From NCBI GenBank assembly GCA_964603095.1, contig CAZRTR010000003.1:1-59509 (forward strand): 59,509 nucleotides of DNA. Reading direction: 5' to 3'. This document shows, piece after piece, positions 3,901 through 40,904 of the stretch. The stretch comes from an uncultured Planctomycetia bacterium. GTDB taxonomy: Bacteria; Omnitrophota; Gorgyraeia; 1-14-0-20-64-10. Made by a program: the position numbers and the translations under genes. The notes below the pieces were generated by a model. It worked only from the letters and a program-made list of their open reading frames with translations, was not told where the DNA came from and did no database searches. Positions within the stretch are counted from its first letter, which is position 1; each line of letters begins with the position of its first letter.

Positions 3901-6900
3901 CCGGCTAAGCGGAAGCGGTTGGAGAGATTTCTCCGAGGGAAGGGGGCCCGCCTGGCCGAGCCGTTCCAAACCGTCTTAGATCTGCTTTCCGGAACCGAAC
4001 CCCGCGCCGGCCTGGAGGAGCAGGAGCTGAAGAGGTTCAACGCGGATGATCCCACCGGAGGAGCGGAGCAGGCGCTAGCACTGGCCCAAGCGGGGCAGCC
4101 GGCCCTTCTGGTGACCGATCAGACCGATCCATCGTTGATCAGGGACGATCGGATGCTCGTGATGAATCTCCAGATCCGAAACGAAAGTCCTTATGGGGCC
4201 AGACGGTACGTTGGCCGGATGAAGGCCTCTAGGATTGGAGAAGGAGAGTGGGCCTACTTCAAGATCGACTCCACCCTGAAGGGTCCGTGGGTGGAAGCGG
4301 CGAAACAACTGGCGGAGAAGCTCCAGCCGGAGATCCTCCTGGTGGCGCCGGCCAACGTGGCTCAGGGCCGAGTCACTCGTCAGGGAGTGCACGGGTTCCT
4401 CAAGGAGGAGGGTCGTCAGGAGACGTTTGTCCCTCTCCACCAAACGGAGTACGCCGGTTTCTTGGATGGGACACTGACCGAGGCAGGGTCCGATCTAACC
4501 GAATATCTCACCCGGCATCAGATTCGTCCCGTGGTCCATCTTGGGTTTTCGGTAATTGAACGTGGGGTGAAGGATGTGGGGATCTTCCTCCAAGGGATCC
4601 CCTCGGGGGCATGGGTGGTGGCGGATGCGGTGAAGCCGGAGCATCTGGCTGTGTTGGCCCAGGCGGTCAAAGAAACGGATCGTTCCTTCCTCTGCTGCGG
4701 ATCCGCAGGACTTTTCGTTGAACTGGTCAAACCGGATTCTCCGGTTCCGTTGGTCTCCTGGGTGGAACAGCTTCAGACGGCCCGGAGGGGCAGGGGAAAG
4801 ATTCTCGTCTTGGCCGGGTCCCGCAATTCCGTCTCTTTGGATCAGGTGAATCAGGCGTTGCGTGATTTCCCTGATCGGGGGAGCCGAGTCCTGGTGGAGA
4901 CCAAGCCCCTTTTCAGCCGGCGCAAGGGAAGTAGAGAAGGGGTCATCCGGAAGATCCAAGAGGAGGTGCGCCGCGGATGGCGCAAGGGGCAGGGGGTGAT
5001 CCTTCAACTGGACAATTCAATCATCCTTCGGCCCGGCACACCTCAGCAGCAGGCCCTTGGAGAACTTTATCGAGGGCTCATCGGGCCACAAGAGGGGAAG
5101 AATCCGTTGGGGCTCCTGGTCGTCTTTGGCGGCGATACCCTGGATACGGTCTTGAGGGCCTTTCACGCGGGCTACACCGCCAGGGCGGAGGTGACTTACC
5201 GAAGCGGCGAGCCGGCCACCAACGTCTCCTACGGGGAGCTGCTTGCCCCGGATCGGCCCCCTTTGCCGATGGTAGTCAAGTCGGAAGGGTTCGGGCGGCC
5301 GGAGCTTCTTTCGGATCTGTTGATCCAGACCAAGGTCATCGCCACTCCTCGGCTGGCGGTGACGATGGGGGATCCGGCAGGAAGCGGCCCGGAGCTACTT
5401 TGGAGGGCCCTGGTCGAGCAGCCGGAGCTTCTGGAGGAGTCGGATCTGATCGTGGTGGGGGATTCGGCGGTCTTGAAGAGGGCCAAGGAATACTGGGCGA
5501 TCCGGTCCCGACCAGGCAAGAGGTTACGGATCCGACCGATTCAACGGATCGAGGAGGCCGAATTCGGACCTGGAATTCTGAACGTTCTCGATCTGGGAAA
5601 CGTCGATCCGATCCTCTTGGAGCGAAGCTTCGGGCCCGTCGGGATCTCCGATCTGGACGACGAGACACGCCGACACTTTGGGCGGGCGGCGCTCCAGTAC
5701 CTGGATGCGGCGATCGAGTTGGCTTCGGCCGGGAACGTGGATGGCATCGTTACGCTGCCCGTCACCAAGGAGGACATCGCCTTGGTTGAACCCGGTTTCC
5801 GGGGCCACACCGAATACCTGGGGGAGCGGCTGGGCACCTTGAACGGCTCCGGCGAGGTGACGATCGCTTTGATCCACGGCCCCTTGAGAGTCCTTCATGT
5901 GACGACCCACAAGTCCCTGCAAGAAGTGGTCGAGCAATTCCAAGATCCGGCGATCACCGAGCAGATTCTGGAGCGGATTCGGATCGCCGCCCAGATGGGG
6001 AGACGGTATTTTGGATTGGAGAACCCCCGCATCGGAGTGTTGGGGCTGAATCCTCACGCGGGTGAGGGGGGCCTGCTGGGGGAGGAAGACCAGAAACGGA
6101 TCCAGCCGGCGATCGATCTCGCGTTGCAAGAGGGCCTGAACGTAAGCCCCCACCCGGTCCCGGCCGACACCGCTTTTTCTCCCGAGATGCGCGGCCAGTG
6201 GGATTTCCTGATCGCCATGTTCCATGACCAGGGCCACGGACCTTTCAAGACGGTCGCCGGCTTGAAAGGGGTCAACTTCACCGGGAACCTGGCGGTTCCC
6301 CGGATCAGCCCCGATTTTGGAACCGCCCGCAGGGAGGCGTGGAACCGGCAGCGATCCCGCGATCTTTCTCCCCAGGGCGTCGGTGTGGCGATCCGCACCT
6401 TGGCCCAGATGATCGCCGCCGGCCGACAAGTCGACCGCGCCGGGCTCGAGGAGAACCCGATGGATGCGCGGGTGGATCGGGCGTGGGCATGGGCGGCCGG
6501 GGGCCGGCGTCAGCTTCGAGAGGCGGCTCTGGAGGCGTTGAGAGTCGTTGAGTACGTGGCTTTAGAGGGGGTGCCGTTTACCCCTAGGGCGAGAGCCAGG
6601 GCTTGGGGGATCCTTTCGCAGGCGCACGTCCTCTTTGGGCTTTCGGATGCCTCTGTGTTCTTGCCGGCGGTGAGAGTGTCCTGGGGCTTGTCTCTCTTTG
6701 GAATCCGTTCCAGGTGGCTTCTTTCTGCAACCCTCCGGATGTACCATCGAAAACACAATGGCATGAATCCGTCCCGGGTTCTGGCGCAGCGTTGGTTCAG
6801 CGACCCCCAGGCCGGGCTGGAGGAGCCGATGATTCCCTTGCCGATGGGACTCCGGGACCTGTTCGAAGATTACCTTCAAAGCCAGGCCGGGCTGGAGGAG

Positions 6901-6909
6901 GCGGCCTGA
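925..6909 (+). CDS. giant 1,994-aa multidomain protein: signal-like N-terminus, ~1,000 aa unknown region, DUF1537-type acid-sugar kinase, PdxA-like dehydrogenase, C-terminal tail; six xGLEE motifs
   Basis: Uninterrupted 5,985-nt ORF. The N-terminus has RRR followed by hydrophobic AAIFLILSLSF..SSYA. Kinase signatures: ADDPTGG, FKIDSTLKG, VAPANVAQGR. PdxA signatures: GDPAGSGPE, GHTEYL, NPHAGEGG, FHDQGHGP. xGLEE codons lie at 1009, 1063, 4006, 6439, 6811 and 6886. Confidence 0.75.
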   Translation: MSMIRRRVAAIFLILSLSFPDSSYALRQTGLEESRPTRQQLIDSLTGGLEESAQEPDEDQLLAEVGKSWQYRIKDERGLHIDALEGALGGSKARTLLLHSAFKQFDGDIYRLPPGLFDLPVWQSPETGALYWGWDTLAQLSDGEIQDAFSNSDFESIAVVHPKEQPPPSPPKQEAVLPAVGPSFPQNSEPIPQSVLPVGQEPRQASPVDERPSEPGQIKVKAPSARVSYKPDDLEQLSFLELGEEILDSEKSRGRSAGRTGRLYKGYLQEFEGDEKRLPGAVENDEQKARRVALAALNEARRSRHLPSVTGKMLVENSRNPKVLRQFEFVFRQIVSSVSRVYEGLRFDREQGLPARPEPPEGSRSPQEYLQALRSWLLYEDWKESHLSAPTFGVGFVDFGADRTLGDPVPFGILSVLAVRQIGMEPSIRCFPELARGLVEKGVTKVEYLPPVPGNPPALRVQFKDPMRDRDTAMVLPALAMAVLKVPLPDLPSREGQREGVDLSDEELLEEADRSIRHELESVEWDEQELRSLVFTEDDPLDQRVARLEKLVRLALEGKLLPRSGYDLYSEEGSRRFARWLGRTSREQRVIQRDLKIKFQDAAERLGWRRPPATAQVQQELADRFDEWSQIQQALLQLGVPERTGDPQAERRVQRMVKRHLLDLATLGYLPLLRLLLVARSPEDSWLLSQGDERHLSNRLEKFRRTLQDAGSIVKELASSLTESDRAIFLAELNHAVLRALPAKPKEPFRQTTMDAVQGTLVRLNAQLLGADPERSPTALMLRRQERDALVEAVRSTQERIWELARSDISRPGTDEMERAVSELETAARELPALGLTLSLDPPPPVRLDSPPVFQQDLTQLRSWVVSSLQQAPETEPAADLAQAGLYRMLLELRMLEEMGDVQEAFQKSQEVLSRLGPAQGEKFLPIRNRAQAAKRRADQQAQEAALQRPSSLQERAAAILGSREYQTAIGNNRLLQEFLGAVAENRAGFFSPAKRKRLERFLRGKGARLAEPFQTVLDLLSGTEPRAGLEEQELKRFNADDPTGGAEQALALAQAGQPALLVTDQTDPSLIRDDRMLVMNLQIRNESPYGARRYVGRMKASRIGEGEWAYFKIDSTLKGPWVEAAKQLAEKLQPEILLVAPANVAQGRVTRQGVHGFLKEEGRQETFVPLHQTEYAGFLDGTLTEAGSDLTEYLTRHQIRPVVHLGFSVIERGVKDVGIFLQGIPSGAWVVADAVKPEHLAVLAQAVKETDRSFLCCGSAGLFVELVKPDSPVPLVSWVEQLQTARRGRGKILVLAGSRNSVSLDQVNQALRDFPDRGSRVLVETKPLFSRRKGSREGVIRKIQEEVRRGWRKGQGVILQLDNSIILRPGTPQQQALGELYRGLIGPQEGKNPLGLLVVFGGDTLDTVLRAFHAGYTARAEVTYRSGEPATNVSYGELLAPDRPPLPMVVKSEGFGRPELLSDLLIQTKVIATPRLAVTMGDPAGSGPELLWRALVEQPELLEESDLIVVGDSAVLKRAKEYWAIRSRPGKRLRIRPIQRIEEAEFGPGILNVLDLGNVDPILLERSFGPVGISDLDDETRRHFGRAALQYLDAAIELASAGNVDGIVTLPVTKEDIALVEPGFRGHTEYLGERLGTLNGSGEVTIALIHGPLRVLHVTTHKSLQEVVEQFQDPAITEQILERIRIAAQMGRRYFGLENPRIGVLGLNPHAGEGGLLGEEDQKRIQPAIDLALQEGLNVSPHPVPADTAFSPEMRGQWDFLIAMFHDQGHGPFKTVAGLKGVNFTGNLAVPRISPDFGTARREAWNRQRSRDLSPQGVGVAIRTLAQMIAAGRQVDRAGLEENPMDARVDRAWAWAAGGRRQLREAALEALRVVEYVALEGVPFTPRARARAWGILSQAHVLFGLSDASVFLPAVRVSWGLSLFGIRSRWLLSATLRMYHRKHNGMNPSRVLAQRWFSDPQAGLEEPMIPLPMGLRDLFEDYLQSQAGLEEAA
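4036..5340 (+). other. domain region: four-carbon acid sugar kinase (DUF1537) N- and C-terminal domains within the giant ORF
   Basis: aa ~1038-1472. NADDPTGGAEQALALAQAG matches the family's N-terminal DDxTG motif, alongside FKIDSTLKG. The nucleotide-binding half has VLAGSRNSVS...VFGGDT. Confidence 0.65.
5350..6420 (+). other. domain region: PdxA-family (4-phospho-hydroxy-acid) dehydrogenase within the giant ORF
   Basis: aa ~1476-1832 carry the PdxA motifs listed above. The usual D-H-G-T-A is D-F-G-T-A here. Confidence 0.7.
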
Positions 6910-7065: not shown

Positions 7066-7347
7066 ATGAGCGTCGGACGTTCGAAGGTTCGGGTCGGGGA
7101 GCAGGCCGCCCAACGATATCAGGCCTTCAGGGATCTGTTGGATTTCTCTGAAGAGCTGGCCCTGGCCGGAATGAGGTCCCAGGGGCTTTCGGAAGACCAG
7201 GGTTGGCAGGTCTGGCGCCGACGCTGGGCGAAGGCATCTCTCGAACATCAGAAGACCAACCGGAAGGTTGCCAAACTCCTTGCGGCACGGGATAGGGTCC
7301 TCCAGCCCGCTCCACGAAGCGCTCGAGAAGATCGTCGAGCTGCTTGA
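7066..7347 (+). CDS. small protein, partner of nucleotidyltransferase (cassette 2)
   Basis: 93-aa ORF overlapping the NTase ORF. It occupies the same position as ORFs 304 and 40692. Confidence 0.4.
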   Translation: MSVGRSKVRVGEQAAQRYQAFRDLLDFSEELALAGMRSQGLSEDQGWQVWRRRWAKASLEHQKTNRKVAKLLAARDRVLQPAPRSAREDRRAA

Positions 7348-7843
7348 ACGCCGGCGTATCCCCTACATGGTGATGGGAGGGCTGTCTCTCTCCGTCTGGG
7401 GACGTGTCCGGGCGACCCAGGATGTTGATCTGGCGGTGGCGTTGGATCCGGGACAAGAGCCGGACTTCCTCCGGGCGATTCGGAAGCAACATTTTCTTCC
7501 TGCGCCTGCGCGGGCCATGCTGGGCCACCGGCTTCTGGTCTGTCGGTATCTGAAGCCGACTCGAGGATTGCCCTTACAGGTTGACCTCTTCCTTGCGCGG
7601 GGGGAGTATCAACAGCAGGCCCTGGCCCGGGCGGTATCCGTCCGGTTGGGCGCTCGATCTTTCCGGGTCATTGCGCCGGAGGATTTGATTCTGTACAAGC
7701 TCCTGGCCGATCGTCCCATTGACCATCTCGACATCCAGACGATCGTTCAGGAACAGAAAGGCCGGTTGGACAGGAGATATTTGATTCAATGGGCCAGGTC
7801 CCTCCGACTCTCCAGGCGACTGAGTTCCGTTCTAAAGGTCTGA
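7268..7843 (+). CDS. minimal nucleotidyltransferase-fold protein (paralog 2)
   Basis: Contains MVMGGLSLSVWGRVRATQDVDLAV and PEDLILYKLLADRPIDHLDIQTIV, and is clearly homologous to ORF 40901. The exact start is uncertain (ATG 7268 or TTG 7280). Confidence 0.75.
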   Translation: MPNSLRHGIGSSSPLHEALEKIVELLERRRIPYMVMGGLSLSVWGRVRATQDVDLAVALDPGQEPDFLRAIRKQHFLPAPARAMLGHRLLVCRYLKPTRGLPLQVDLFLARGEYQQQALARAVSVRLGARSFRVIAPEDLILYKLLADRPIDHLDIQTIVQEQKGRLDRRYLIQWARSLRLSRRLSSVLKV

Positions 7844-18494: not shown

Positions 18495-19994
18495 ATGACT
18501 CGCGACCTCCCCCAGCTCTCCAACCAAACCTTCGACCTCCTGGTCATCGGCGGGGGCATCCTCGGCGCCGGCATCGCGTGGGACGCCGCCACCCGGGGGC
18601 TCTCCTGCGCCTTGGTGGAGCAGGGGGACTTCGCCGGCGGAACCTCCTCCAAGACGACCAAGCTGATCCACGGCGGGATCCGTTATCTTGAAAATCTGGA
18701 GTTCAAACTGGTCCGGCAATCGATCCGGGAGCGCTGGTGGCTGCTGCGCTTCGCCCCGAACCTGGTCAAGCCGTTGCCGTTCCTCGTCCCTGTGGTCGGG
18801 AACTCTCCCCGGCCCTGGCCGTTGGTGAAGATCGGCGTTTTCCTGTACGACCTTCTGGCCGGCAAGCGCTCGATCCACCCCCACCGGTTCCTGAACCGAT
18901 CTGAAGTGGAACAGATGGAGCCGCTCCTGCGTCAGGTGAAGGTCCGGAAGGGGGCCCTCTATTACGACGCCCAGATGGATGACGCCGGTCTCGTTCTGGA
19001 GGCGCTCAAGGCCGCCTCCCAGGCCGGGGCGAAGGCGGCCAATTACTGTCCGGTCACCCGGTTCCTTTCGCAAGGGGGCCGCCTGGTCGCAGCGGAGGTG
19101 GAGGATCGGTTGACCGGCAAACGGTTCGAGGTCCGCGCCCGGCTGCTGATCAACGCCACCGGCCCCTGGGTCGACCGCCTGCGCCGGTTAGCCGATCCCG
19201 CCGCCAAGCCGATCGTCCGCCCCTCCAAGGGGATTCATCTCCTCTATCCGGATTTGGGGCTCAGGCAGGCGCTGCTCCTCTCCTCCCCCAGCGACCAGAG
19301 GATCTTCTTCTTAATCCCCTGGCGGGGGATGACCCTGATCGGCACCACCGACACCGACTATTCCGGCGATCCGGGCGCCGCCCGCGCCGAGCCGTCCGAC
19401 GTGGAATATCTGATCCGTGAGACGAACCGGCTCCTCCCGAAGCTTCGGCTCGACCCCAAGAAGATTATCTCCACCTTCGCCGGGGTCCGTCCCCTCGTTG
19501 CCCAGGAGAAGAAAGATCCCTGGGCGGTCAGCCGCGGCCACCTCATCCACGAAGATTCCAACGGTCTCCTCAGCATTGTCGGCGGCAAGTTCACCACCTT
19601 CCGGATGATCGCGCAGGATCTCGTCGACCGGGTTTCTCCCCGACTGCCGGGAAAAGGGATCGGCCCCTGCCGGACCGGGCAGCTTCCCCTGGGTCGCGCC
19701 GAGGAGAAAGAGAGGATGATCCGAGGATGGATCGAGCAGGATCCCTCCCTAGCGCAGCCCCTGTGCCCCCACCATGCGTTCCGCAAGGCCGATCTCCGCT
19801 ACGCCGTAGAGGAAGAGATGGCCCTCCACCTCTCCGGCCTCCTGTTCCGCCGTCTCGGAGTCGCCTGGTCCCCCTGCCAGGGCCTCGACTCTCTCGACTC
19901 CGCCGCCGACTACCTCGGCCATCTCCTCGGCTGGGACCCCGCCGAGCGCCAGCGCCAAATCGCCGCCTACCGCCAGGAGATCTCGCTCGGGTAA
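18495..19994 (+). CDS. glpD: FAD-dependent glycerol-3-phosphate dehydrogenase
   Basis: DLLVIGGGILGAGIAWDAATRG, TSSKTTKLIHGGIRYL and position next to glpK support the call. Confidence 0.88.
   Translation: MTRDLPQLSNQTFDLLVIGGGILGAGIAWDAATRGLSCALVEQGDFAGGTSSKTTKLIHGGIRYLENLEFKLVRQSIRERWWLLRFAPNLVKPLPFLVPVVGNSPRPWPLVKIGVFLYDLLAGKRSIHPHRFLNRSEVEQMEPLLRQVKVRKGALYYDAQMDDAGLVLEALKAASQAGAKAANYCPVTRFLSQGGRLVAAEVEDRLTGKRFEVRARLLINATGPWVDRLRRLADPAAKPIVRPSKGIHLLYPDLGLRQALLLSSPSDQRIFFLIPWRGMTLIGTTDTDYSGDPGAARAEPSDVEYLIRETNRLLPKLRLDPKKIISTFAGVRPLVAQEKKDPWAVSRGHLIHEDSNGLLSIVGGKFTTFRMIAQDLVDRVSPRLPGKGIGPCRTGQLPLGRAEEKERMIRGWIEQDPSLAQPLCPHHAFRKADLRYAVEEEMALHLSGLLFRRLGVAWSPCQGLDSLDSAADYLGHLLGWDPAERQRQIAAYRQEISLG
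19919..19972. repeat. 54-bp perfect direct repeat, left copy (inside glpD 3' end)
   Basis: Identical to 21377..21430. Its flanks are similar but diverged, mostly at synonymous positions. Confidence 0.9.
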
Positions 19995-20095
19995 GCAGCC
20001 GGGTTTCCTTATTAAACGTTCCGCCCGTTTTGTTTAATAACGATTTTGCTTATGAAACGATCGTGAGATAAGGAACCGCAACTACTCGATGCGTT

Positions 20096-20127
20096 TGTGT
20101 AAAGTAATCGCTAAATTACTTTACACA
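20096..20127. promoter_or_regulatory. 13-bp perfect inverted repeat (putative operator) upstream of fic
   Basis: tgtgtaaagtaat-cgctaa-attactttacaca, with a TATAGT -10-like hexamer at 20140..20145. Confidence 0.5.
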
Positions 20128-20159
20128 AAATGGATTGCGTATAGTATACTTGACACAGG

Positions 20160-21272
20160 ATGGAACCCTTTATCGCTCAGTCTGTTCCGGTTACCAACGT
20201 CGACCTGGTTTCGCTGATTCCGCTCATCGGTCCAGCCAACCGAGCCGTAGCGCATTATGACGGCCTGCTCTATGGGATCCGGAACCCCCACGTTCTTTTA
20301 TCACCCTTGACGACGCAAGAAGCAGTCCTGTCCTCCCGCATTGAGGGAACTCAGGCGACGCTGGGAGAAGTGCTGAAATATGAAGCAGGTGAAGAGCCGG
20401 CGCAGGAGTCCAGGCGGCAGGACATCCAGGAAATCATCAATTACCGCCATGCCCTGCGCAGGGCGCAAGAGATCCTCAAGACCAAGCCGTTCCATCTGAA
20501 CCTGCTGTTGGAACTGCATGCCATCCTGCTGAACAGCGTGCGCGGTCGAGACAAGGAGCGTGGCCGGTTCCGGACAAAGCAGAATTGGATCGGTCCTCCG
20601 GACTGCCCCATCGAGCAGGCCCGCTTCGTACCGCCGGAACCGATGAGTGTCCCCGGACTGCTGGACAACTGGGAAAAGTATTATCACCGCGAAGAGCCCG
20701 ATGTGTTGGTGCAGCTGGCCGTCCTCCATGCGCAGTTCGAGATCATCCATCCGTTCGTGGATGGCAACGGTCGCATCGGCCGGCTGCTCCTGCCGCTGTT
20801 TCTCTACGAGAGGCGGCTGCTGTCCAAACCGATGTTCTATTTGTCCGCCTACTTCGAACGGCATCGTGACGAATATTACGAGCGCCTCCGCCCTCTCGGC
20901 GCATCGCAGGATGCCTGGAACCAATGGATTGCCTTCTTCTTGAAGGCGGTGTGTGAACAAGCCGATGAAAATACCAAGAAGGCGCGCCAGATCCTTGATC
21001 TCTATGAGCGGTTGAAAGATCGGGTGCGCGAGCTGACCCACTCGCAGTTTGCCGTGCCTTTATTGGATCGGTTGTTCGATCAACCCATCGTGCAGACCAC
21101 CGAACTTGCCCGTCATCGGTCCATGCCGAGCCGCCCGATGGTGATGGTCCTTTTGGGGAAGCTGAGAGCCGCCGGAATTCTGAAAACGGTTCGCCCCGGC
21201 AGCGGCCGCAGGGCCGAGGTGCTGGCCCTGGCCGAGCTCATCAATCTCTGCGAAGGGAGAAAGGTGTTTTGA
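20160..21272 (+). CDS. Fic family protein (AMPylase-type) with N-terminal inhibitory motif and C-terminal wHTH-like region
   Basis: Fic motif HPFVDGNGRIGR. SSRIEG matches the [ST]xxxE[GN] inhibitory helix. Confidence 0.88.
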   Translation: MEPFIAQSVPVTNVDLVSLIPLIGPANRAVAHYDGLLYGIRNPHVLLSPLTTQEAVLSSRIEGTQATLGEVLKYEAGEEPAQESRRQDIQEIINYRHALRRAQEILKTKPFHLNLLLELHAILLNSVRGRDKERGRFRTKQNWIGPPDCPIEQARFVPPEPMSVPGLLDNWEKYYHREEPDVLVQLAVLHAQFEIIHPFVDGNGRIGRLLLPLFLYERRLLSKPMFYLSAYFERHRDEYYERLRPLGASQDAWNQWIAFFLKAVCEQADENTKKARQILDLYERLKDRVRELTHSQFAVPLLDRLFDQPIVQTTELARHRSMPSRPMVMVLLGKLRAAGILKTVRPGSGRRAEVLALAELINLCEGRKVF

Positions 21273-21376
21273 CCAGAACTAAGCAGACTGCACACATCGG
21301 TATGTCTCAGGTCGGCTGAAAGCCGCTTAGACCGGTTCACCGGCAGAAAGATCAGCCCCTGTCAGGGCCTCGCCTC

Positions 21377-21430
21377 CCATCTCCTCGGCTGGGACCCCGC
21401 CGAGCGCCAGCGCCAAATCGCCGCCTACCG
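21377..21430. repeat. 54-bp perfect direct repeat, right copy (displaced glpD 3' remnant)
   Basis: Reads HLLGWDPAERQRQIAAYREEISLAG-stop, compared with the glpD end HLLGWDPAERQRQIAAYRQEISLG-stop. Confidence 0.9.
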
Positions 21431-21648
21431 GGAGGAAATATCTCTTGCCGGTTGATAGCAAATTTCCTTCCAACGGGACCTTTCTTCTGTTACAATTTGA
21501 ATCACTTTACCGTCACCCGTCTGGCTAGGGGGATAGAAGTAGTGGAAGCCGATAACCTGTCCCTCGGTACGCGGTGCCGATTGGGCGCGCGAACTATAAC
21601 TTTGAGTGCCTTATTTTGAACAGGAAGGATGTTGGGAGCCTTCTGCTG

Positions 21649-22563
21649 CTAGCGGATGAACTGTCCTCCCGGTATGTCTCCCCCGGAACTGCTTGGCATG
21701 GTCAAAGGGGCCACTTTTATGGCCCACTCGCAGAAACCGCACTCGCTGTCGGCCGACGGGCATGAGCGCTTGGAAAGCAGATCAACCGCTTCCCTGAAAA
21801 TCTTCCGTGCCCGTTCGGGGTCGGTGTCCACCTTGACCGGATGCATGTGGAAGGTGATCCGGCCCCCGTCGTTCTGCTCGAGAGGATGGTAGAAGACCAG
21901 GTAGGCGCAGCCGGCGGTCTGGTAGCCGTTTTCCTGTAGCAGCAGCGTGTAGATGTTGAGCTGATCCTGGTAGTAGGACGGCGTATCCTCCTTTACGGGG
22001 TAGCCCCGGGTTTTGTAGTCCAGCGGAAGGTAACGGTCCTCCTGAACCAGGCAATCGTCCAGAAGCCCCATGAGAGTCGCCCCGACCTCCTTGTCGGAAT
22101 ACCGCAGGCCCCGGTGGCGGGCACGCCAGAGGTCCAGCAGCTTCTGGTCCGGGAACAGCGTCCCTTCCAGTTTCCCTTCGAGCTCGGGCGGGAGCTTCCC
22201 CAGGACCCGGAACCGGTCGAAGTACTTTTTGATGATGCCGTCCATGCCCCCCGGCAGCGAAGGAAAGATCGTATCGGGCCGGCTGATCCCCTTGACCTTT
22301 TCCAGCCAGAAGCAGCGTGGACACTCCGTAAAGAGACTCAGCGAACTGTAGGAGAGGCAGATCTGCTTTTCGGCCACAGACCGGATACTACCACTCAGGA
22401 GGCGTGGGTGACAACCCGGAGATTTTGCTTGCCCCCTTGGCGCCGGGGGTCTCTTGGGCTGGGACCCCCCCTCCAACGTCAGATCGATTCCTACCGCCAG
22501 GAATGCAGCGCCTGACAGGATGCGTGAGGCGTATAATGTGGGAATACAGGAGGTTTGAGACAT
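21649..22563 (-). CDS. PD-(D/E)XK nuclease, Cas4/RecB-like with Cys cluster
   Basis: Contains CPRCFW...LPLDYK...QLNIYTLLL...CPSADSECGFCEW (1+3 Cys, D..D/ExK, QxxxY). The true start may be GTG 22377. Confidence 0.7.
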   Translation of the reverse strand: MSQTSCIPTLYASRILSGAAFLAVGIDLTLEGGSQPKRPPAPRGQAKSPGCHPRLLSGSIRSVAEKQICLSYSSLSLFTECPRCFWLEKVKGISRPDTIFPSLPGGMDGIIKKYFDRFRVLGKLPPELEGKLEGTLFPDQKLLDLWRARHRGLRYSDKEVGATLMGLLDDCLVQEDRYLPLDYKTRGYPVKEDTPSYYQDQLNIYTLLLQENGYQTAGCAYLVFYHPLEQNDGGRITFHMHPVKVDTDPERARKIFREAVDLLSKRSCPSADSECGFCEWAIKVAPLTMPSSSGGDIPGGQFIR

Positions 22564-22637
22564 GGCGGATGGCGGGTTTTTAGTCAGGTTTGAGGGAAAG
22601 GAACCCCAAAGGTGTTACGCGGTAGAATTCGATTACG

Positions 22638-24113
22638 ATGAGCGGTCCTACGCGATCAACGGAGGAAAAAAGGAGGAGATACCCAAGGGGATCCAGAGGA
22701 TCATTATTGAGGTCGAGGAGACCGGCCTTTGACTTGAAACGCGTCGCCCCCGCTTTTCTGCTGCCCCTCCTCTTGGCAACCGCCGCCTCCGCCCATCCCG
22801 CCGACGTCGAAAACATCCTGCCTGACCGCTACTTTGAAGTCGCACGGAACGAGATCCAACGGGCGGAATCCTCCATCCGCCTCTACATGTACCTGATCGC
22901 CCTTCCGCCGAACCGGCTGAATTCCAAGGTCTACCGCCTGGTAGACGCGCTGGTGGAGGCCAAAGACAGGGGTGTGGACGTTCAGGTGATGCTGGACCGG
23001 AATATTGACTGGAAGGATGAAAGCAACCTCGGTTTCTGGGACTCCGCCGGCAAGAATGCCAGGGCCTACAGTTACCTCCGGGAGAAGGGAATCAGCGCCT
23101 ATTTTGATGACGAGGCGATCTTCACGCACGCCAAGGTGCTGGTGATCGACCGGAAAACCGTGATTCTGGGCTCGGCAAATTGGAGCGAGGCGGCATTGGC
23201 CCGCAACCTGGAAGCCAATGTTCTGATCCGGTCCGAGGAGTTCGCCAAGGAGGTCCTGGAGCGCTTTGAGGGGTTGGAGCTCCACACCCCGGAGGGTGGG
23301 AACTCTGAGACCGTCGCGGTGCCGCAGCCCTTCTTGAGCAGTAAACACCTGTTGGGACGGATGGTGACCGATGCTGATGAACGGGCTTTTGACGCCTACC
23401 TCTTTCTACTAAGGGTCTTCGGCGAGGAAGAGCAAGGGAAAGAAAAGGTTGTGGATTACGAGCCGCTCAAGGTGGCGCTTGGAATTCGGGGCAAGAGCGA
23501 ATGGAATAACAGGCGGGCTGTCAGAAGGGTTCTGGATCGGCTACAGGACAAGTATAGGTTGATCGCCGTCTCTTACAGGCGGGGAGATGAGCCGGCGGTC
23601 TCTCTAAAGGCGATAGAAGGCCGGACCGGGCCAGGCGTCGCTTCAGAGACGGCACCGGTGGAGATTCCCGTCACCTACTGGGAATGGGATTGGAATAAAG
23701 AGCTGAGCTTCGCGGGGAAGGTGATGTACGTTCTGGGGGCTATGTATTCCTCCGCGTCGACGACGGCCCCGAGATGGTTCAGGTCAACGGGCGATCTGGC
23801 GAAGAGGCACGGTTTCACAAGGAGTTTTGTTGAGGATGGATTTATGGACTTGCGGCGGCGTAACCTGGTGGAGGTGGAACCGGGCCGGCTCAACCCGGCA
23901 AACTACAGCGACCGGAAGGCGAACCGGTACGCTCCAAACCCGTTGTACGATCCCAAGGAGCTGGAACAGGCATTCCGCAGACTGGAGGAACGGCATGGAG
24001 CGGAGAAGGTGAAGAAGGCCGCTGGCTACGCTGCGCTGGTTTATGAGGGTAGCGATGAAGATGGGAAGGTGATGAAAGGTGGCGGGTCGACCCGACCCCT
24101 TGGAAATGGTTGA
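22638..24113 (+). CDS. secreted phospholipase D/Nuc-like (single HKD) protein with ~270-aa C-terminal extension
   Basis: HKD motif HAKVLVIDRKTVILGSANWS. Signal-like KRVAPAFLLPLLLATAASAHPA. The probable real start is TTG 22734. Confidence 0.75.
   Translation: MSGPTRSTEEKRRRYPRGSRGSLLRSRRPAFDLKRVAPAFLLPLLLATAASAHPADVENILPDRYFEVARNEIQRAESSIRLYMYLIALPPNRLNSKVYRLVDALVEAKDRGVDVQVMLDRNIDWKDESNLGFWDSAGKNARAYSYLREKGISAYFDDEAIFTHAKVLVIDRKTVILGSANWSEAALARNLEANVLIRSEEFAKEVLERFEGLELHTPEGGNSETVAVPQPFLSSKHLLGRMVTDADERAFDAYLFLLRVFGEEEQGKEKVVDYEPLKVALGIRGKSEWNNRRAVRRVLDRLQDKYRLIAVSYRRGDEPAVSLKAIEGRTGPGVASETAPVEIPVTYWEWDWNKELSFAGKVMYVLGAMYSSASTTAPRWFRSTGDLAKRHGFTRSFVEDGFMDLRRRNLVEVEPGRLNPANYSDRKANRYAPNPLYDPKELEQAFRRLEERHGAEKVKKAAGYAALVYEGSDEDGKVMKGGGSTRPLGNG
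24072..24094. repeat. 23-bp perfect direct repeat, left copy (inside PLD gene 3' end)
   Basis: atgaaaggtggcgggtcgacccg, identical to 24798..24820. Confidence 0.9.
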
Positions 24114-24135
24114 AAGAGCGTGACTCAAGTGGTAT

Positions 24136-24166
24136 CCTATGTATGGTAGTGTGTACCATACATAGG
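24136..24166. promoter_or_regulatory. 13-bp perfect inverted repeat (putative VapB operator)
   Basis: cctatgtatggta-gtgtg-taccatacatagg overlaps the TGGTATCCT -10-like element (24130..24138), 12 nt before ATG 24178. Confidence 0.55.
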
Positions 24167-24177
24167 AGGGTTGACCA

Positions 24178-24381
24178 ATGACGACGAAGATCACCACCTA
24201 TATCGATGAGCAGTTGCTCAAGAAGGCCCTGAAGGTGTCCCGGTCCAAGTCGAAACGGGAGGTTTTGGAGAGCGGCCTGCGTACCCTGTTGGCGGAGGTC
24301 CAGCGCAACACCTTCGTCAGGGAATTTGACCACCTGCGCCTGCGCCTTTCTCCGGAGGAGCTTGCGCGGTCCCGCCGTTAG
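24178..24381 (+). CDS. vapB: type II antitoxin, VapB-like
   Basis: 67 aa with N-terminal TTYIDEQLLKKALK, located 3 nt upstream of a PIN gene. Confidence 0.8.
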   Translation: MTTKITTYIDEQLLKKALKVSRSKSKREVLESGLRTLLAEVQRNTFVREFDHLRLRLSPEELARSRR

Positions 24382-24384
24382 AGA

Positions 24385-24801
24385 ATGGCGCTGGTTCTGA
24401 TCGACACCTCGGCCTGGATCTTTAACTTCCCACCCAGAACCGTACCGGCCATCCGGACTCGGATCACGGAGTTGCTTCAGCGGGATCAGGCCGCGGTGAC
24501 CTCTCCCATCCTCTTTGAGCTCCTGCAGGGAGCTCGATCGGGCGACCAGTTTCGGCAGATGCACCAGCGCCTCTCCGGCCTTCACCCGTTTCCTCTCACG
24601 GAGGTGGATTGGCTGAAGGCGGCCCAGTGGGCCTGCCGGCTCCGGGCCGGCGGAATCACGGTGAAGACCGTCGATTTCCTCATTGCCTACAAGGCGATGA
24701 GGCATAGGCTGACCCTGCTTCATGCGGATGCAGATTTCGATCGTTTGGCCCGCTTGGTTCCATTAAAGGTGGAAAGTTTCGTCCGGCAGGTGCGTTCATG
24801 A
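24385..24801 (+). CDS. vapC: PIN-domain toxin, VapC-like
   Basis: LIDTSAWI at the N-terminus, with conserved acidic residues (E in ILFELLQG, D in TVDFLIA, D in HADADFD). Confidence 0.85.
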   Translation: MALVLIDTSAWIFNFPPRTVPAIRTRITELLQRDQAAVTSPILFELLQGARSGDQFRQMHQRLSGLHPFPLTEVDWLKAAQWACRLRAGGITVKTVDFLIAYKAMRHRLTLLHADADFDRLARLVPLKVESFVRQVRS

Positions 24802-24820
24802 AAGGTGGCGGGTCGACCCG
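24798..24820. repeat. 23-bp perfect direct repeat, right copy
   Basis: Overlaps the vapC stop codon. Confidence 0.9.
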
Positions 24821-24914
24821 GGAAACGCGGACCGGGGACGAGGGAGATAGCTGATGGAGGCGGACGGGGTTTTTGAGGGGGGCGGGGAATCACCCTTGCG
24901 GAGTGAGATTTTTT

Positions 24915-24959
24915 GGGGTATAATTTCAACGTGGAGATGATTTCAACGGATGTTGAAAT
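24915..24959 (+). promoter_or_regulatory. promoter/operator region of the AbiE-like pair
   Basis: Contains GGGGTATAAT, the direct repeat atttcaac at 24923 and 24940, and the inverted pair atttcaac-ggat-gttgaaat ending 1 nt before ATG 24960. Confidence 0.45.
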
Positions 24960-25661
24960 ATGGTTGACAGTGAAACTATGACTCGACCGGTGCAGAACAT
25001 CTTCAGCGACCGGGCCTCCCTGGTCCTGCGCGCCTTCCTCAGGCAGCCGGAGAAGAAGTGGGTCATTCCCGACTTCTGTCGAGAGGGGCTCTCGGCAGGG
25101 CTGGCCAGCGGGGTGCTCAACCGGGCGGAGGCCCTGGGGTACATTCACCGGTCCAGGAGGGGGAGGGAGAGTCATTCCCGGCTGGTCCGGAAGGAGCTTC
25201 TTCTGAAGGATTGGTGCCAGGCCTATCGGTTCGACCGCAACGTCACCGCCACCTACTTCTATCCCGGGGAGGATTTCCTGAAAAGGGTCGTTCGACGGCT
25301 TGCCCAGGACAAGGTGGAGTATGCCCTGACCCTCTTCAGCGCCAGCCGCCTCATTTCACCCTACGTCAAGGATGCCCGTCATTTCGTCTATCTGAATCGG
25401 CGCGGGGAGGCGTTCTGGAGGTGCCTGGACCAGATGGAGCGGGAGCAGCTCATCTACAAGCTGGCCCGGGGTGGAAACGTCTGGTTCATTTCGCCCTTTT
25501 ATCGCAGCTGCGTCTTTCGGGATTCCCGGACGCTGAAAGGGTGCCGGGCGGTCTCCAACCTTCAGCTGTATCTGGATTTGATCGGTTTTCCCCCCACCGG
25601 TCCCGAGGAGGCCAGGCACCTGGAGGAGTTCTTCAAGAAGCGGGGAGAGCCCTTTGTCTGA
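24960..25661 (+). CDS. AbiEi-like putative antitoxin/transcriptional regulator (wHTH N-terminus)
   Basis: 233-aa ORF overlapping the downstream NTase by 8 nt, the architecture of type IV AbiE modules. The family call is tentative. Confidence 0.55.
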   Translation: MVDSETMTRPVQNIFSDRASLVLRAFLRQPEKKWVIPDFCREGLSAGLASGVLNRAEALGYIHRSRRGRESHSRLVRKELLLKDWCQAYRFDRNVTATYFYPGEDFLKRVVRRLAQDKVEYALTLFSASRLISPYVKDARHFVYLNRRGEAFWRCLDQMEREQLIYKLARGGNVWFISPFYRSCVFRDSRTLKGCRAVSNLQLYLDLIGFPPTGPEEARHLEEFFKKRGEPFV

Positions 25662-26448
25662 GCCGAGAGGATTGGAGCGTGCCTTTCTGGATACCTTGGT
25701 TGCCTTAGACCCGGAGCTGCCCCGTCTGGTGATTGTCGGCGGTTGGTGTCCCTACCTTTACGCCACCTACCTCTGGAGGAAGAAAATACCGAACATTCCC
25801 ACGACGATGGACGTCGATTTGGGTGTCACCGAGACCGGCTCCAGGAAGTTTGAGACAACCGTTTACGACCGGCTTAAGGCGATGGGATTGGCCATGGAGC
25901 GGATTCACGAAGAGGAACCGGAGCCAATCGAGTTCATCTACAAGGAGAAGAACCTGGAGATGAAGCTGGAGTTCATCACCTCCTTTGAAACTTCCGATGA
26001 TACGCTGAACCGGTTCTTGGGGCAGAAACTGGCTTGCCACCGGATCGAGGCCTTTGAGATCCTACTGAAGGACCCTCTCACGCTTCAGGTTGACGCTGGC
26101 CCGAGGAGACTGCATGTGCAGGTGCCCAGGCCGGAGCTGTTCCTCTTTCACAAGGGGATCACCTTTGTCGGCCGGCCTGACTCCATCAAGCGGGACAAGG
26201 ATCTGTTCTACGTCTACTTCTTCCTCCGGTTCAGCCCGGATCCTCCTGCGCTGTTGGAGGCGATTGTCGGCCTTAAATCCCACGACTATTTCGGGACCTT
26301 TCGCCGGAACCTGGCCGACCATCTTTCGGACCCATCCCGCCCAGGGTACCTCATGCTTCGGCCTTTTGTCTCCCGGTGGGTCGAGGAGCGGGATGTCAGC
26401 CGGGAAATCGAGGAAACCTTCCGGGATCTGCTGCGGGTCGTGGGGTGA
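25654..26448 (+). CDS. AbiEii-like nucleotidyltransferase (putative toxin)
   Basis: Contains VIVGGWCPYLY...TMDVDLGV (G-x-D-x-D) and KRDKDLFYVYFFL motifs. Confidence 0.65.
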   Translation: MSEPRGLERAFLDTLVALDPELPRLVIVGGWCPYLYATYLWRKKIPNIPTTMDVDLGVTETGSRKFETTVYDRLKAMGLAMERIHEEEPEPIEFIYKEKNLEMKLEFITSFETSDDTLNRFLGQKLACHRIEAFEILLKDPLTLQVDAGPRRLHVQVPRPELFLFHKGITFVGRPDSIKRDKDLFYVYFFLRFSPDPPALLEAIVGLKSHDYFGTFRRNLADHLSDPSRPGYLMLRPFVSRWVEERDVSREIEETFRDLLRVVG

Positions 26449-26538: not shown

Positions 26539-27264
26539 TTAGAGGCGGAAGGTCCAGGCCGGGTCGGAGTAGCGGGTGGTGACGAGGCGGGCGATCCGGG
26601 CGGAGAGGGAGCCGTTCAAGGGGAGGGGCTCGGCGACGGCCCAGCCGGAGGAGAGGGCCTGTTTAACAACCTGGGGAGGAAGGTCAAGCTGGGTCAGGAA
26701 TTGGGTGTGGGGGCGGTCGGAACGGTAAGCAGGCCGGCGGCTGGGCAGGGGCAGGATCCTCTCCATGAGCGGAAAATCCACCCGCAGGAGGAAGGAGCCG
26801 TGGAACAGGAGGTGGCTCTTCTTTCGGCGCTGCGAGTTGCCGGAGAATTTCCGATTTCCCAGGGTGAGGTCGGTATCCCCCTGGAGTTGGACCGGCTTAT
26901 TCAGGAGCGGTTCAAGGATTTGGCGATGGCGCTCGAGGATGAAGCGGTTGGCACGGGCGATGGTGGTGAGAGGGCCGGGATTCCGGATCTTGAGGATCAG
27001 CGCATAGTTGAGAACGCCAGGGCCTTGGAGAACGGCGCCGCCGCCGCTGACGCGGCGCAGGATCGGGATCTGATGGAAGCGGCAGTGGTCGAGGGCCGCC
27101 TCCGACGCATGGCGGCCGGAGATCCCCAGCACGATGAACGGCTGGGCCGGCTCCCAGAAACGGAGGATCTCCTCCTCCGGTCCCGCTTCGCATTCTTCCA
27201 GCAGGGCCTCGTCGCAGGCCAGGTTCTCCTCGGGGGTGGGGAGGGTCAAGTCGAGGATCTGCAT
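26539..27264 (-). CDS. lipoate-protein ligase / octanoyltransferase family protein (BPL_LplA_LipB)
   Basis: RRVSGGGAVLQGPG and KFSGNSQRR motifs. It is divergent from the PDH operon. Confidence 0.75.
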   Translation of the reverse strand: MQILDLTLPTPEENLACDEALLEECEAGPEEEILRFWEPAQPFIVLGISGRHASEAALDHCRFHQIPILRRVSGGGAVLQGPGVLNYALILKIRNPGPLTTIARANRFILERHRQILEPLLNKPVQLQGDTDLTLGNRKFSGNSQRRKKSHLLFHGSFLLRVDFPLMERILPLPSRRPAYRSDRPHTQFLTQLDLPPQVVKQALSSGWAVAEPLPLNGSLSARIARLVTTRYSDPAWTFRL

Positions 27265-38892: not shown

Positions 38893-38917
38893 AATGAGTA
38901 GAGAAGAGGAGGAATGG

Positions 38918-39280
38918 ATGGGTGCTGTCCACGTTAAGGTAAAGTTGTTGGGGTTGCCGGACCGCCCAGTTGAGCCGCAAACGGTTGAGGCGCTGGTCGA
39001 TACCGGAGCTACTCTTTCTATTCTGCCAGGAGCGCTGTTGAGGAAAGTGGGTGTTAAATCGCTTCATTCAGTAAGGACCCGGCTAGCGGACGGAACCATT
39101 GTCCGGCGGTCTGTCGGTGAGGCAAGATTAAAACTGAACGGCGAAATCGTCACTACGCGCGTCCTTTTCGGTCAGAAACATGATGCCACCGTCATCGGTC
39201 TGGTCACTCTGGAGAGCTTAGGTCTTACCGTGGATCCTGTCCGCCGCCGCCTCGTCCACACCGATTATCTGATGCTGTAG
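38918..39280 (+). CDS. retropepsin-like aspartic protease (single domain)
   Basis: ALVDTGATLSILP (D-T-G-A catalytic motif) and the later VIGLVTLESLGL. AT-richer than its neighbours. ATG 38894 is an alternative start. Confidence 0.75.
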   Translation: MGAVHVKVKLLGLPDRPVEPQTVEALVDTGATLSILPGALLRKVGVKSLHSVRTRLADGTIVRRSVGEARLKLNGEIVTTRVLFGQKHDATVIGLVTLESLGLTVDPVRRRLVHTDYLML

Positions 39281-39306
39281 TCTCCTTCCGGGTATCCCTT
39301 CCTCTG

Positions 39307-39335
39307 TTGACAAGTGGAATGGGCCTTGGTAACCT
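39307..39335 (+). promoter_or_regulatory. sigma-70-like promoter TTGACA-N17-TAACCT
   Basis: Read directly from the sequence, about 37 nt upstream of ATG 39372. Confidence 0.4.
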
Positions 39336-39371
39336 ACCGTTAGTGTTTTCTAAAGACTTAAGAACTCCCCG

Positions 39372-40691: not shown

Positions 40692-40904
40692 ATGGTGAAA
40701 TCAATTCGTCGTTACACCGAGGAGTCGGAGCGTCAACGTGTCCGCCACTTGCAGCAGCTCACCTGCCGAGAATCTGCAGCGATCTTGGAACTCCTCCTTC
40801 GCTCTCGTCTGGCGTTTGAACTCCATTTTGCGGAAGACGACCATCCCATAGCTCTGTCTCATTACCACCGTTTTCATCCGAACAGACGTCGAAAAGCGGC
40901 GTGA
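40692..40904 (+). CDS. small protein, partner of nucleotidyltransferase (cassette 3)
   Basis: 70 aa with a GTGA overlap onto the downstream NTase. Confidence 0.45.
   Translation: MVKSIRRYTEESERQRVRHLQQLTCRESAAILELLLRSRLAFELHFAEDDHPIALSHYHRFHPNRRRKAA

Follow-up and report, generated by a model that had tools for sequence, protein, structure and literature searches.

The 3′ end of glpD as a possibly reused insertion site for a fic module and a Cas4-like nuclease module in an Omnitrophota genome

The glpD gene examined here encodes an intact glycerol-3-phosphate dehydrogenase/oxidase of 499 amino acids (18495–19994, + strand) possessing the Pfam domains DAO and DAO_C; its homologues in Candidatus Omnitrophota metagenome-assembled genomes (MAGs) share 57–67% identity with it. 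Three copies of the 3′-tail of this gene are found in the window (the whole stretch of DNA analysed, 59,509 nt), where they bracket two single-gene modules in the order functional tail, fic, tail copy 2, Cas4-like nuclease, and tail copy 3. The modules measure 1.4 kb and about 0.95 kb (0.95–1.0 kb for the nuclease module), lack any mobility gene, and form the head of a low-GC defence/toxin–antitoxin island (19995 to about 26500). In the sequence-only reading the fic islet was taken for a stand-alone element between two repeats; it is in fact the leading member of an array that comprises three tails and two modules. The rest of the island (22562–26448, + strand) lies downstream of tail copy 3 and consists of a 56-residue ORF, a DrmC/NucT-like PLD nuclease (22707–24113, +), vapB/vapC (24178–24801, +), and an AbiEi-like protein with a nucleotidyltransferase (24960–26448, +). 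The core genome picks up again at lipB (26539–27264, − strand). No fourth copy of the glpD tail was found deeper in the island or near lipB, and a weak match at 26625–26659 (− strand) was rejected as an extra tail because it sits within lipB.

The portion of glpD that is homologous to copy 2 (tail copy 1; 19871–20045, +) comprises a 54-nt block, a diverged terminus and stop codon, a terminator-like hairpin (19985–20004, +), and an AT-rich inverted repeat. The block (19919–19972, +) matches 21377–21430 at 54 of 54 positions, which confirms the perfect direct repeat reported earlier, and is the putative crossover zone. A 47-nt sub-pattern of the block is present exactly two times in the window but absent from all of 100 dinucleotide-preserving shuffles. 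A single dyad, CTCGGC-N9-GCCGAG (19926–19946), is located within the block. Ungapped similarity between copies 1 and 2 covers 69 nt at 93%, and gapped homology extends from 19871/21356 to about 20045/21500, past the stop codons and approximately 50 nt of 3′ UTR; the bracketing repeat is the glpD tail (54 nt perfect, about 120–175 nt gapped). The AT-rich inverted repeat TTATTAAAC/GTTTAATAA (20009–20017/20032–20040) is present, and, since it lies in 3′ UTR that is homologous between the two copies, it belongs to the glpD tail and not to the fic element. The contents first ascribed to the insert are therefore retained for fic and its operator, but not for this repeat.

In tail copy 2 (21356–21500, + strand, the right end being approximate) the block is preceded by a 21-nt stretch that resembles glpD (19/21), with a gap of 27 nt, as compared with glpD, between the two, and is followed by a terminus and a diverged 3′ UTR. 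The terminus reads REEISLAG* (+ strand, stop at 21453–21455), and the last seven codons of glpD specify RQEISLG* (19973–19994, +), the putative incoming-type terminus; the encoded ends, …AAYRQEISLG* (copy 1) versus …AAYREEISLAG* (copy 2), are as previously claimed. Within the block none of the 18 codons differs. Immediately 3′ of it six of the seven aligned sense codons do, five synonymously and one non-synonymously (Q>E), the count for the seven codons as a whole being 6 synonymous versus 1 non-synonymous, and the termini are further distinguished by a one-codon indel and by TAA/TGA stops. Overall, the codon differences outside the block are 8 synonymous versus 2 non-synonymous, where about 24% synonymous would be expected (p≈3e-4), a result congruent with the earlier description of the termini as alternative, mostly synonymously differing versions. 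Copy 2 has retained its reading frame, its length, and a terminator-like hairpin.

Because the differences outside the block are almost only synonymous, copy 2 is not a decayed local duplicate; it appears once to have been a working glpD end, that of another allele. The sharp mosaic of block and terminus suggests that two functional alleles have been joined by crossover, and the mostly synonymous terminus differences suggest that a separate glpD end arrived with the incoming DNA. Of the earlier proposal of an element carrying its own version of the target-gene end (attL/attR), this part stands; site-specific integration is one of the possible routes. The 27-nt gap, although in frame, was dropped as evidence for a natural allele, the nine-residue segment being kept in all relatives; it is more likely a decay or junction feature of the untranslated arm. 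A search for the donor lineage of the foreign tail among the glpD loci of relatives revealed just a generic 75% similarity to one of them (L006).

The fic gene (20160–21272, + strand) encodes a SoFic-type class II Fic AMP-transferase with Pfam domains Fic_N and Fic and a C-terminal domain. The solved SoFic structures are its best PDB matches (3eqx; E≈1e-36), the PADLOC SoFic profile is matched over the full length (residues 3–364; E=8.7e-110), and the score against the NCBIfam equivalog for Shewanella oneidensis SoFic is 166 bits with a cut-off of 550; the PADLOC match and the sub-cut-off NCBIfam score together place the protein in the SoFic family, but not as an equivalog. The active-site motif HxFx(D/E)GNGRxxR is present as HPFVDGNGRIGR, as read from the translation. 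Class II Fic proteins are defined by an inhibitory motif, (S/T)xxxE(G/N), in N-terminal position, and this is found within Fic_N (Pfam E=1.8e-25) as SSRIEG. Upstream of the gene is a palindromic operator, TTTGTGTAAAGTAAT-N6-ATTACTTTACACAAA (20094–20129, +), the existence of which had been recognized; its perfect arms are 15 nt in length (20094–20108 and 20115–20129) and not the 13 bp originally given. A promoter-like site (TTTACA-16-TAGTAT; 20120–20147, +) overlaps its right half. Of 62 related loci, 50 carry such a palindrome 52–83 nt ahead of fic, versus 3 of 2757 background segments. The protein is a candidate abortive-infection defence toxin; from its family membership it probably does act in this manner, and probably represses its own promoter via the operator.

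With the closest fic loci, nucleotide homology runs from the operator through the fic stop codon (20094 to 21270–21272). The conserved and presumably transferable unit is operator, promoter, and fic only (20094–21272, 1.18 kb). The arm that separates fic from tail copy 2 (21273–21355, +) is homologous neither to glpD nor to other fic loci, and the approximately 100 nt following the fic stop are too short for a small downstream antitoxin-like gene. A search of phages and plasmids with the Fic family yielded zero phage matches and a single plasmid match at 50% identity, on which basis a phage- or plasmid-borne family was rejected.

The second module contains a solitary Cas4-like PD-(D/E)XK nuclease of 242 amino acids (21649–22377, − strand; Pfam PDDEXK_1; gene call in L081) with a promoter-like site at 22414–22385 (−). 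The protein keeps the fold family and the conserved CxxC…CxxC residues, and it is Cas4-like by PADLOC and NCBIfam, though below the curated NCBIfam cut-offs (Cas4: 24 versus 65 bits). No cas genes are found beside it, and its usual GIY-YIG partner gene, present beside its relatives, is absent here. A CRISPR-associated Cas4 was rejected on the basis of the sub-cut-off score, the lack of adjacent cas genes, and the pairing of the relatives with a GIY-YIG gene. Nucleotide homology to these relatives is restricted to 21723–22368, the C-terminus being an unrelated extension, and the gene in the window is a severed fragment of the two-gene unit seen in them. The nearest relatives (81% and 74% identity) both reside on integrase-bearing elements, with either a tyrosine integrase and an Xis-like HTH_17 protein or a large serine recombinase; no glpD-like sequence was found in these elements.

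Tail copy 3 (22447–22515, + strand) is frameshifted, possesses about 75% identity, and reads GLLGWDP…/…QRQIDSYRQECSA*. Its homology begins at approximately 19921 in glpD coordinates, which is where the 54-nt block has its left edge, and its poly-C run is of a different length in a sibling MAG. Decay rises with distance from glpD: copy 2 is 93% identical over 69 nt, and copy 3 about 75% identical and frameshifted. The sequence-only reading did not include this third tail, the 21-nt stretch of copy 2, or the tail origin of the AT-rich repeat.

The islet had been described as devoid of a recombinase, and Pfam analysis extends this to the island and to the called ORFs of the 59.5-kb window, with zero matches to the Phage_integrase, Resolvase, Recombinase, and transposase families. 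A search for arm motifs common to both modules gave nothing above shuffled controls. The sole close relative, a MAG that is 99.7% identical, exhibits an unchanged arrangement, and the comparison with related genomes, with this one close genome occupied, revealed no empty site. Such occupancy without polymorphism was half of what had been named as evidence against an inserted element; the other half would require a simple local duplication, which the bias towards synonymous changes excludes. In relatives whose GlpD is ≤67% identical there is one tail, there are no island genes, and the downstream synteny differs from that of the window, and in none of 35 relatives were extra tails or island genes found 3′ of glpD. 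The 42-nt repeat core gave zero matches to metagenome and viral contig collections, whether as empty, circular, or other-host forms. The GlpD cluster contains no 500-residue REEISLAG allele, only two 499-residue alleles from occupied sites, and exact-protein look-ups for the window GlpD and two further window proteins returned no record. Removal of the insert in silico restores an intact glpD. Over a 232-nt tract of glpD (18809–19040) the window and a sibling MAG, elsewhere 99.9% identical, diverge by 12%, which indicates that diverged glpD alleles recombine into the locus.

Bracketing duplications are also found at other fic loci. With a strict criterion (≥40 nt at ≥87%), which replaced a loose blastn threshold that caught paralogue-level similarity (28 of 225 control windows), they are present at 7 of 62 non-redundant related loci from other metagenomes, against 0 of 225 and 1 of 117 windows in two controls (Fisher, 1.7e-5 and 0.003, respectively). 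The seven repeats are 47–391 nt in length, mutually unrelated, and share no common core; in at least three loci they are gene 3′ ends (cysS-like, protease, and rsmI-like), and rebuilding the empty sites recovers these genes intact. The inserts are 1.2–2.3 kb and hence too small for a recombinase. At the rsmI-like locus (L162) a sharp left edge is followed by perfect stretches of 56+249+15 nt and then by a diverged terminus of about 70 nt, in which frame and length are kept and the differences are 13 synonymous versus 11 non-synonymous (p=0.002). Judged by its sequence, this is a second independent locus with glpD-type anatomy. Another locus, L133, carries fic and one host-gene tail fragment head-to-tail, which is the arrangement predicted of a circular or tandem unit. 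The test for synonymous bias, applied to five bracketing repeats other than that of glpD, is decisive for L162 alone, the differences elsewhere being too few; most bracketed fic loci possess too few differences to separate an allele from an in-situ duplication.

We put at about even the chance that the 3′ end of glpD has been reused as an insertion site by two recombinase-less modules via Campbell-type crossovers. The Cas4-like nuclease module would have entered first and fic, with its own operator and promoter, second, in each case by one reciprocal crossover in which the glpD tail in residence recombined with a homologous tail, from another allele, on the incoming DNA. Each event would leave glpD intact with the incoming last codons and displace the previous tail downstream as a spare, and the 54-nt block would be the sole stretch alike enough between the two alleles to cross over. 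The likeliest catalyst would be the homologous recombination machinery of the host, with a module plus one tail, in circular or tandem form, as its substrate; here we infer the circular intermediate, as well as the sequence of events and the enzyme. Several observations run counter to this crossover model. The searches yielded neither an empty site nor an excised circle nor a polymorphic relative, and bracketing repeats are present at only 11–15% of fic loci. The left edge of tail 3 is that of the block, and one crossover point in two events would be expected from a site-specific recombinase. The absence of a recombinase covers one window, so that an integrase could act in trans, and the nuclease relatives are carried by integrase-bearing elements. 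Lastly, the 54/54 identity beside synonymously saturated codons calls for an explanation, for which repeated exchange, gene conversion, or selection on a recombination site are candidates.

It is conceivable, although we consider it doubtful, that the modules are cis-mobilizable: originally integrase-bearing elements that targeted the 3′ end of glpD by site-specific recombination and accreted in tandem, and which have lost their integration genes or are served by an integrase in trans, the tails being attL, a hybrid att site, and attR. Direct repeats of a gene 3′ end together with an element-supplied replacement end are the classic signature of such elements; the site has been used twice, tails 2 and 3 having an equal left limit (about 19919–19921), although tail 2 also has glpD-like sequence upstream of this edge. 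The dyad inside the block and the residence of the nearest nuclease relatives (81% and 74%) in tyrosine-integrase or serine-recombinase elements point in the same direction, but those elements are without glpD-like sequence, and an integrase is absent from the island and the window. Precedents exist in the CIME and accretion at fda and tRNA genes (PMC5704250) and in the serial ssrA-tail repeats of Dehalococcoides, where some islands lack integration modules (PMC3146451). For single-gene modules of 1.0–1.4 kb, however, two-sided decay must end precisely at each att copy, the two modules have no arm-type motifs in common, and the unrelated 47–391 nt repeats at fic modules are inexplicable by one integrase specificity. 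Because the duplications at related fic modules vary and share no core, recombinase-independent insertion fits at least as well as attL/attR integration.

In-situ duplication or unequal crossing-over of the glpD tail followed by decay, with fic and the nuclease arriving separately, is very unlikely. Direct repeats by themselves are compatible with it, and several fic loci possess 95–97% repeats with no synonymous bias (L161, 1 synonymous versus 5 non-synonymous). The differences in the window are strongly synonymous (8:2), however, and the repeats bracket every inserted gene exactly; the kept frame, length, and hairpin of copy 2, with differences that only flank a perfect block, are not what neutral decay of a spare copy predicts. 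Least credible of all is a chimeric join of co-occurring strains during assembly. The source is a MAG, and repeats longer than k break assembly graphs (the Logan unitig L083 ends 30 nt into each copy). Yet that unitig independently confirms the inner junctions (block to terminus 1 and arm to block), two assemblies 37 SNPs apart carry the identical structure, the second has a copy 2-specific SNP within the block, and copies 2 and 3 are distinct sequences not derivable from a single-copy genome.

Prophage e14 and phage 21 integrate inside the 3′ part of a housekeeping gene, icd of E. coli, as at glpD, and supply a replacement 3′ end with mainly synonymous changes, the original end becoming a pseudo-copy. 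Unlike the glpD modules, they are complete or defective prophages that encode an integrase of their own and have a short, defined core. ICESt1/CIME at fda and the Dehalococcoides ssrA islands (PMC5704250, PMC3146451) likewise possess serial 3′-end repeats that delimit tandem islands, an intact target gene upstream, some units without integration genes, and a most proximal unit that is plausibly the newest. In those arrays the att cores are short and conserved (e.g., 20 bp), the units run to several kb, and cognate integrases can be identified within the array or the species, whereas the glpD array consists of single-gene units of 1.0–1.4 kb, no integrase is seen, and the repeats at related fic genes are unrelated. 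Integron cassettes are also (mostly) single self-contained genes separated by recombination-site-like repeats, but here there is no IntI, attI, or attC-type imperfect palindrome, and each module has its own promoter. An integron cassette array was rejected, there being no integrase and the repeats being glpD coding sequence rather than attC-like palindromes. With the SoFic single-gene anti-phage system (PADLOC model; PMC12249575) the fic module shares the full-length profile match and the Fic and intramolecular inhibitory motifs; it differs in offering no room for a gene such as the AS1 antitoxin of E. coli.

The array fits the pattern termed “insertion with long target duplication” (Nobusato et al. 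2000; Furuta, Abe & Kobayashi 2010, PMC2853133), the mechanism of which is given there as unknown. As described there, members of this class lack a mobility gene, have target repeats of 46–423 bp whose length differs by event, include the solitary nuclease mcrA among their cargos, and are defined by empty sites; the repeats often span the stop codon, so that the target gene survives. The likenesses are small mobility-gene-free units (<20 kb), a target-derived repeat of >30 bp, and repeat length and sequence that vary between insertions of related cargo. The cargo there is restriction-modification and here a SoFic-type Fic and a Cas4-like nuclease; here two events are stacked on one site, no empty-site genome is at hand for the glpD locus, and the insert-adjacent tail, both in the window and at L162, is a diverged functional allele and not a copy of resident sequence. 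The passages of PMC2853133 covered here make no mention of a foreign-allele tail beside an insert.

The glpD locus extends a poorly understood kind of mobility to a SoFic-type toxin and a solitary Cas4-like nuclease as cargo, with two insertion events stacked on a single housekeeping gene. The mechanistic clue lies in the foreign functional allele of the target end that adjoins the insert at glpD and at the unrelated rsmI-like locus, which suggests that the incoming DNA carries the target tail as a homology handle. Core-gene 3′ ends are thereby flagged as sites at which defence islets may accumulate in Omnitrophota and other uncultured phyla. Very tentatively, and rather against the balance of probability, single-gene defence/toxin modules, SoFic being the type case, might constitute a class of recombinase-free mobile cassettes, each with a portable host-gene tail, a circular or tandem form, Campbell-type entry that leaves the housekeeping gene intact, and integron-like stacking. 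Were such a class to exist, the mechanism that “insertion with long target duplication” lacks would be at hand, and with it a general way for defence islets without an integrase to spread.

The gene order in this region is glpK, glpD, a 6.5-kb island, lipB and the pyruvate dehydrogenase genes, the GC content of the island being 0.55-0.60 versus 0.64-0.69 for the core. Its genes include fic (20160-21272), a Cas4-like PD-(D/E)XK nuclease on the minus strand (21649-22377), a DrmC/NucT-like PLD nuclease, vapBC, and an AbiEi-like protein with a nucleotidyltransferase. Copies of the glpD 3′-end enclose exactly the first two of these, in the order tail 1, fic, tail 2, nuclease, tail 3. The sequence-only reading had reported no recombinase in the fic insert, and this now extends further: neither the island nor the scanned ORFs of the 59.5-kb window gave a match to a recombinase or transposase family, in a scan that comprised all called ORFs except a giant one of 1994 amino acids at the window start (925-6909) and left a few ORFs with no family match. 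No tRNA gene was found in the window. Three paralogous DUF6036/DUF2204 nucleotidyltransferase-like genes (458-922, 7268-7843, 40901-41473) are dispersed among core genes and may be separate toxin-antitoxin-type islets. Another small inserted islet may lie between the ABC-transporter and respiratory-complex genes at 38894-40634, where a 420-residue ORF (39372-40634) with no Pfam or NCBIfam match comes after a retropepsin-like aspartyl protease ORF (38894-39280), both of lower GC3.

Comparison within the window reveals that the reported perfect repeat is real: 19919-19972 and 21377-21430 are identical at 54/54 positions, and a 47-nt sub-pattern occurs exactly twice in the window and in 0/100 shuffles. 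Ungapped similarity between tails 1 and 2 covers 69 nt (93%), and gapped homology starts at 19871/21356 and runs across both stop codons some 50 nt into the 3′ UTR. The encoded termini are indeed alternatives, AAYRQEISLG-stop in the functional glpD and AAYREEISLAG-stop in copy 2, and the differences are, as first described, mostly synonymous. Outside the 54-nt block, 8 codon differences are synonymous and 2 non-synonymous, where approximately 24% synonymous would be expected (p≈3e-4); the seven codons 3′ of the block contribute six and one, respectively, plus a one-codon indel, and within the block 0/18 codons differ. Copy 2 also retains a hairpin and T-rich stretch beyond its stop. A spare copy decaying neutrally would be expected to show neither the synonymous bias, the unchanged block nor the kept hairpin, which makes duplication in situ a very improbable source of the repeat. 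Tail 2 is a formerly functional glpD end from a different allele, which confirms what the sequence-only reading had proposed, and the transition at 19972/19973 is a sharp recombination boundary. Copy 2 has a 27-nt in-frame gap upstream of the block; this was dropped as a sign of function because the segment removed is present in all relatives.

Two features had been overlooked. A third tail, at 22447-22515, is approximately 75% identical, frameshifted, reads QRQIDSYRQECSA up to its stop, and is older than copy 2. The AT-rich inverted repeat at 20009-20040 adjoins a terminator-like hairpin (19985-20004) and lies in the 3′ UTR stretch homologous between copies 1 and 2, so that it belongs to the gene tail and not to a fic element. 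GlpD homologues at 57-67% identity all derive from Candidatus Omnitrophota MAGs, which marks the source of the window as a genome of Candidatus Omnitrophota type. Many of those at 60-66% (P0034-P0066; loci L004, L005 and L035) comprise only about 400 residues, matching query residues 1-395/399 and lacking the C-terminal DAO_C domain, which indicates natural variation or truncation of the glpD 3′ region in a sister clade.

The PADLOC SoFic profile covers the Fic protein end to end (E=8.7e-110), its best PDB matches are the solved SoFic structures, and the translation contains the active-site motif HPFVDGNGRIGR and the inhibitory motif SSRIEG. Its score falls below the NCBIfam equivalog cut-off, and we thus regard it as belonging to the family without being an orthologue. 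SoFic itself has been described as a toxic protein that defends by abortive infection (PMC12249575). Of the two inverted repeats originally assigned to the insert, the one upstream of fic (20094-20129, 15-nt arms) stands as a genuine, conserved putative operator: a TGTGTAAAG-N-CTTTACACA palindrome is found 52-83 nt 5′ of fic in 50/62 related loci versus 3/2757 background segments. Its right half coincides partly with a promoter-like site. Between the window and the closest fic loci (80%), nucleotide homology begins precisely at the left edge of the operator and ends at the stop codon (20094-21270); the transferable unit is therefore operator, promoter and fic, approximately 1.18 kb. In the loci of the closest fic relatives (L169, L170 and L171; 83% identity) a 69-residue HTH_3 (XRE-type) gene follows fic, BrnT/BrnA toxin-antitoxin genes lie nearby, and a 20-nt direct repeat flanks fic on both sides, its copies differing at one position and sharing a 16-nt exact core, CCCTCGATTTTTATCC. 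The small HTH gene, which has no equivalent in the window, might be the counterpart of the E. coli gene reported as an anti-SoFic partner.

The Cas4-like nuclease possesses all family-conserved residues followed by an unrelated 17-residue C-terminal extension. Homology to its relatives ends at 21723, the point at which their GIY-YIG partner gene starts; this overlapping gene always follows in the relatives (L173-L177) and is missing from the window. Relatives at 81% and 74% identity reside in elements with either a tyrosine integrase and Xis-like HTH_17 protein or a large serine recombinase. The second module is thus what remains of a two-gene unit carried by mobile elements.

A survey of 84 metagenome fic loci, 62 of them non-redundant with usable flanks, reveals bracketing direct repeats (at least 40 nt, at least 87% identity) in 7/62, compared with 0/225 and 1/117 random 1.1-kb control windows from unrelated and the same loci (Fisher 1.7e-5 and 0.003). 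Where both flanks reach at least 500 nt, the count is 6/39. These repeats measure 47-391 nt and have no motif in common; the inserts between them, of 1.2-2.3 kb, leave no room for a recombinase. When the empty site is reconstructed in silico, an intact housekeeping gene with the repeat as its extreme 3′-end is recovered at four or more loci, the window among them (glpD; cysS-like; TPR/aspartyl-protease; rsmI-like). One of the fic loci, L162, reproduces the mosaic of the window: after a sharp left edge and perfect stretches of 56+249+15 nt comes a diverged terminus of about 70 nt (GPAEC-stop versus GPARR-stop) that keeps frame and length, with 13 synonymous to 11 non-synonymous differences (p=0.002). 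In another, L133 (JGI contig Ga0315276_10257114; 1849 nt), fic lies head-to-tail with a 3′ fragment of an adenylylsulfate-kinase-like ORF (185-409), and the first and last 116 nt are identical, the overlap including the last 20 nt of fic. This could be a circular or tandemly amplified unit of module and one tail, or alternatively an assembly-graph effect.

The sibling MAG contig (GCA_947085735.1; L081/L082), 99.71% identical across 13.1 kb, likewise carries three tails, with a private SNP within the block of copy 2. In the decayed tail 3 it differs by one C in the length of the poly-C run at 22464-22472, a hypervariable homopolymer, and by one substitution. A Logan unitig (L083) corresponds exactly to 19943-21406 and so contains the non-repeated sequence flanked by 30 nt of either repeat copy. 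Both inner junctions are thereby confirmed; the ends of the unitig are as expected from a k=31 graph break and carry no information on excision. The repeat structure is real and richer than first noted, and an assembly artefact is scarcely credible. In the comparison with related genomes, suggested originally as a search for the empty site, no such allele is on record, the sibling being occupied; more distant relatives have a single glpD tail and no island genes, with variable downstream synteny. The repeat core is absent from the metagenome and viral contig collections searched. For these reasons mobility of the modules is something we infer from sequence rather than observe. Within glpD, 28/37 SNPs between the window and L082 fall at 18809-19040, a 12% divergence over 232 nt (nine amino acid changes) in DNA otherwise 99.9% identical; fic is 100% identical. 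The tract has the appearance of a diverged glpD allele brought in by homologous recombination, or else of strain mixing in one assembly; diverged alleles evidently recombine into this locus.

The anatomy requires a Campbell-type crossover in the block to have occurred twice. A single reciprocal exchange within the 54 nt would join the resident tail to an incoming tail-bearing unit, the decay order of the tails placing the nuclease module first and fic second. As catalyst we favour, with about as much confidence as doubt, host homologous recombination acting on a unit of module plus one tail, because an integrase is lacking, the repeats at related fic insertions are unrelated and of many different lengths, nothing outside the block is similar enough for recombination, and diverged glpD alleles have visibly recombined close by. 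A site-specific recombinase acting in trans, or decayed integrative elements, is a serious if less likely rival: the left homology limit is the same in tails 2 and 3, the perfect identity of the block is hard to obtain by chance, and the nuclease relatives sit on integrase-bearing elements.

The array resembles the integration of e14 and phage 21 in icd; it is not an integron. It also resembles cis-mobilizable elements accreted site-specifically at a gene 3′-end (PMC5704250, PMC3146451). The pattern corresponds to insertion with long target duplication as described for restriction-modification genes (PMC2853133): there is no mobility gene, the mechanism is given as unknown, the repeats vary in length from 46 to 423 bp and often span the stop codon, and a solitary nuclease is among the cargos. 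The window locus offers a concrete, testable handle on how defence islets that lack a recombinase are inserted.
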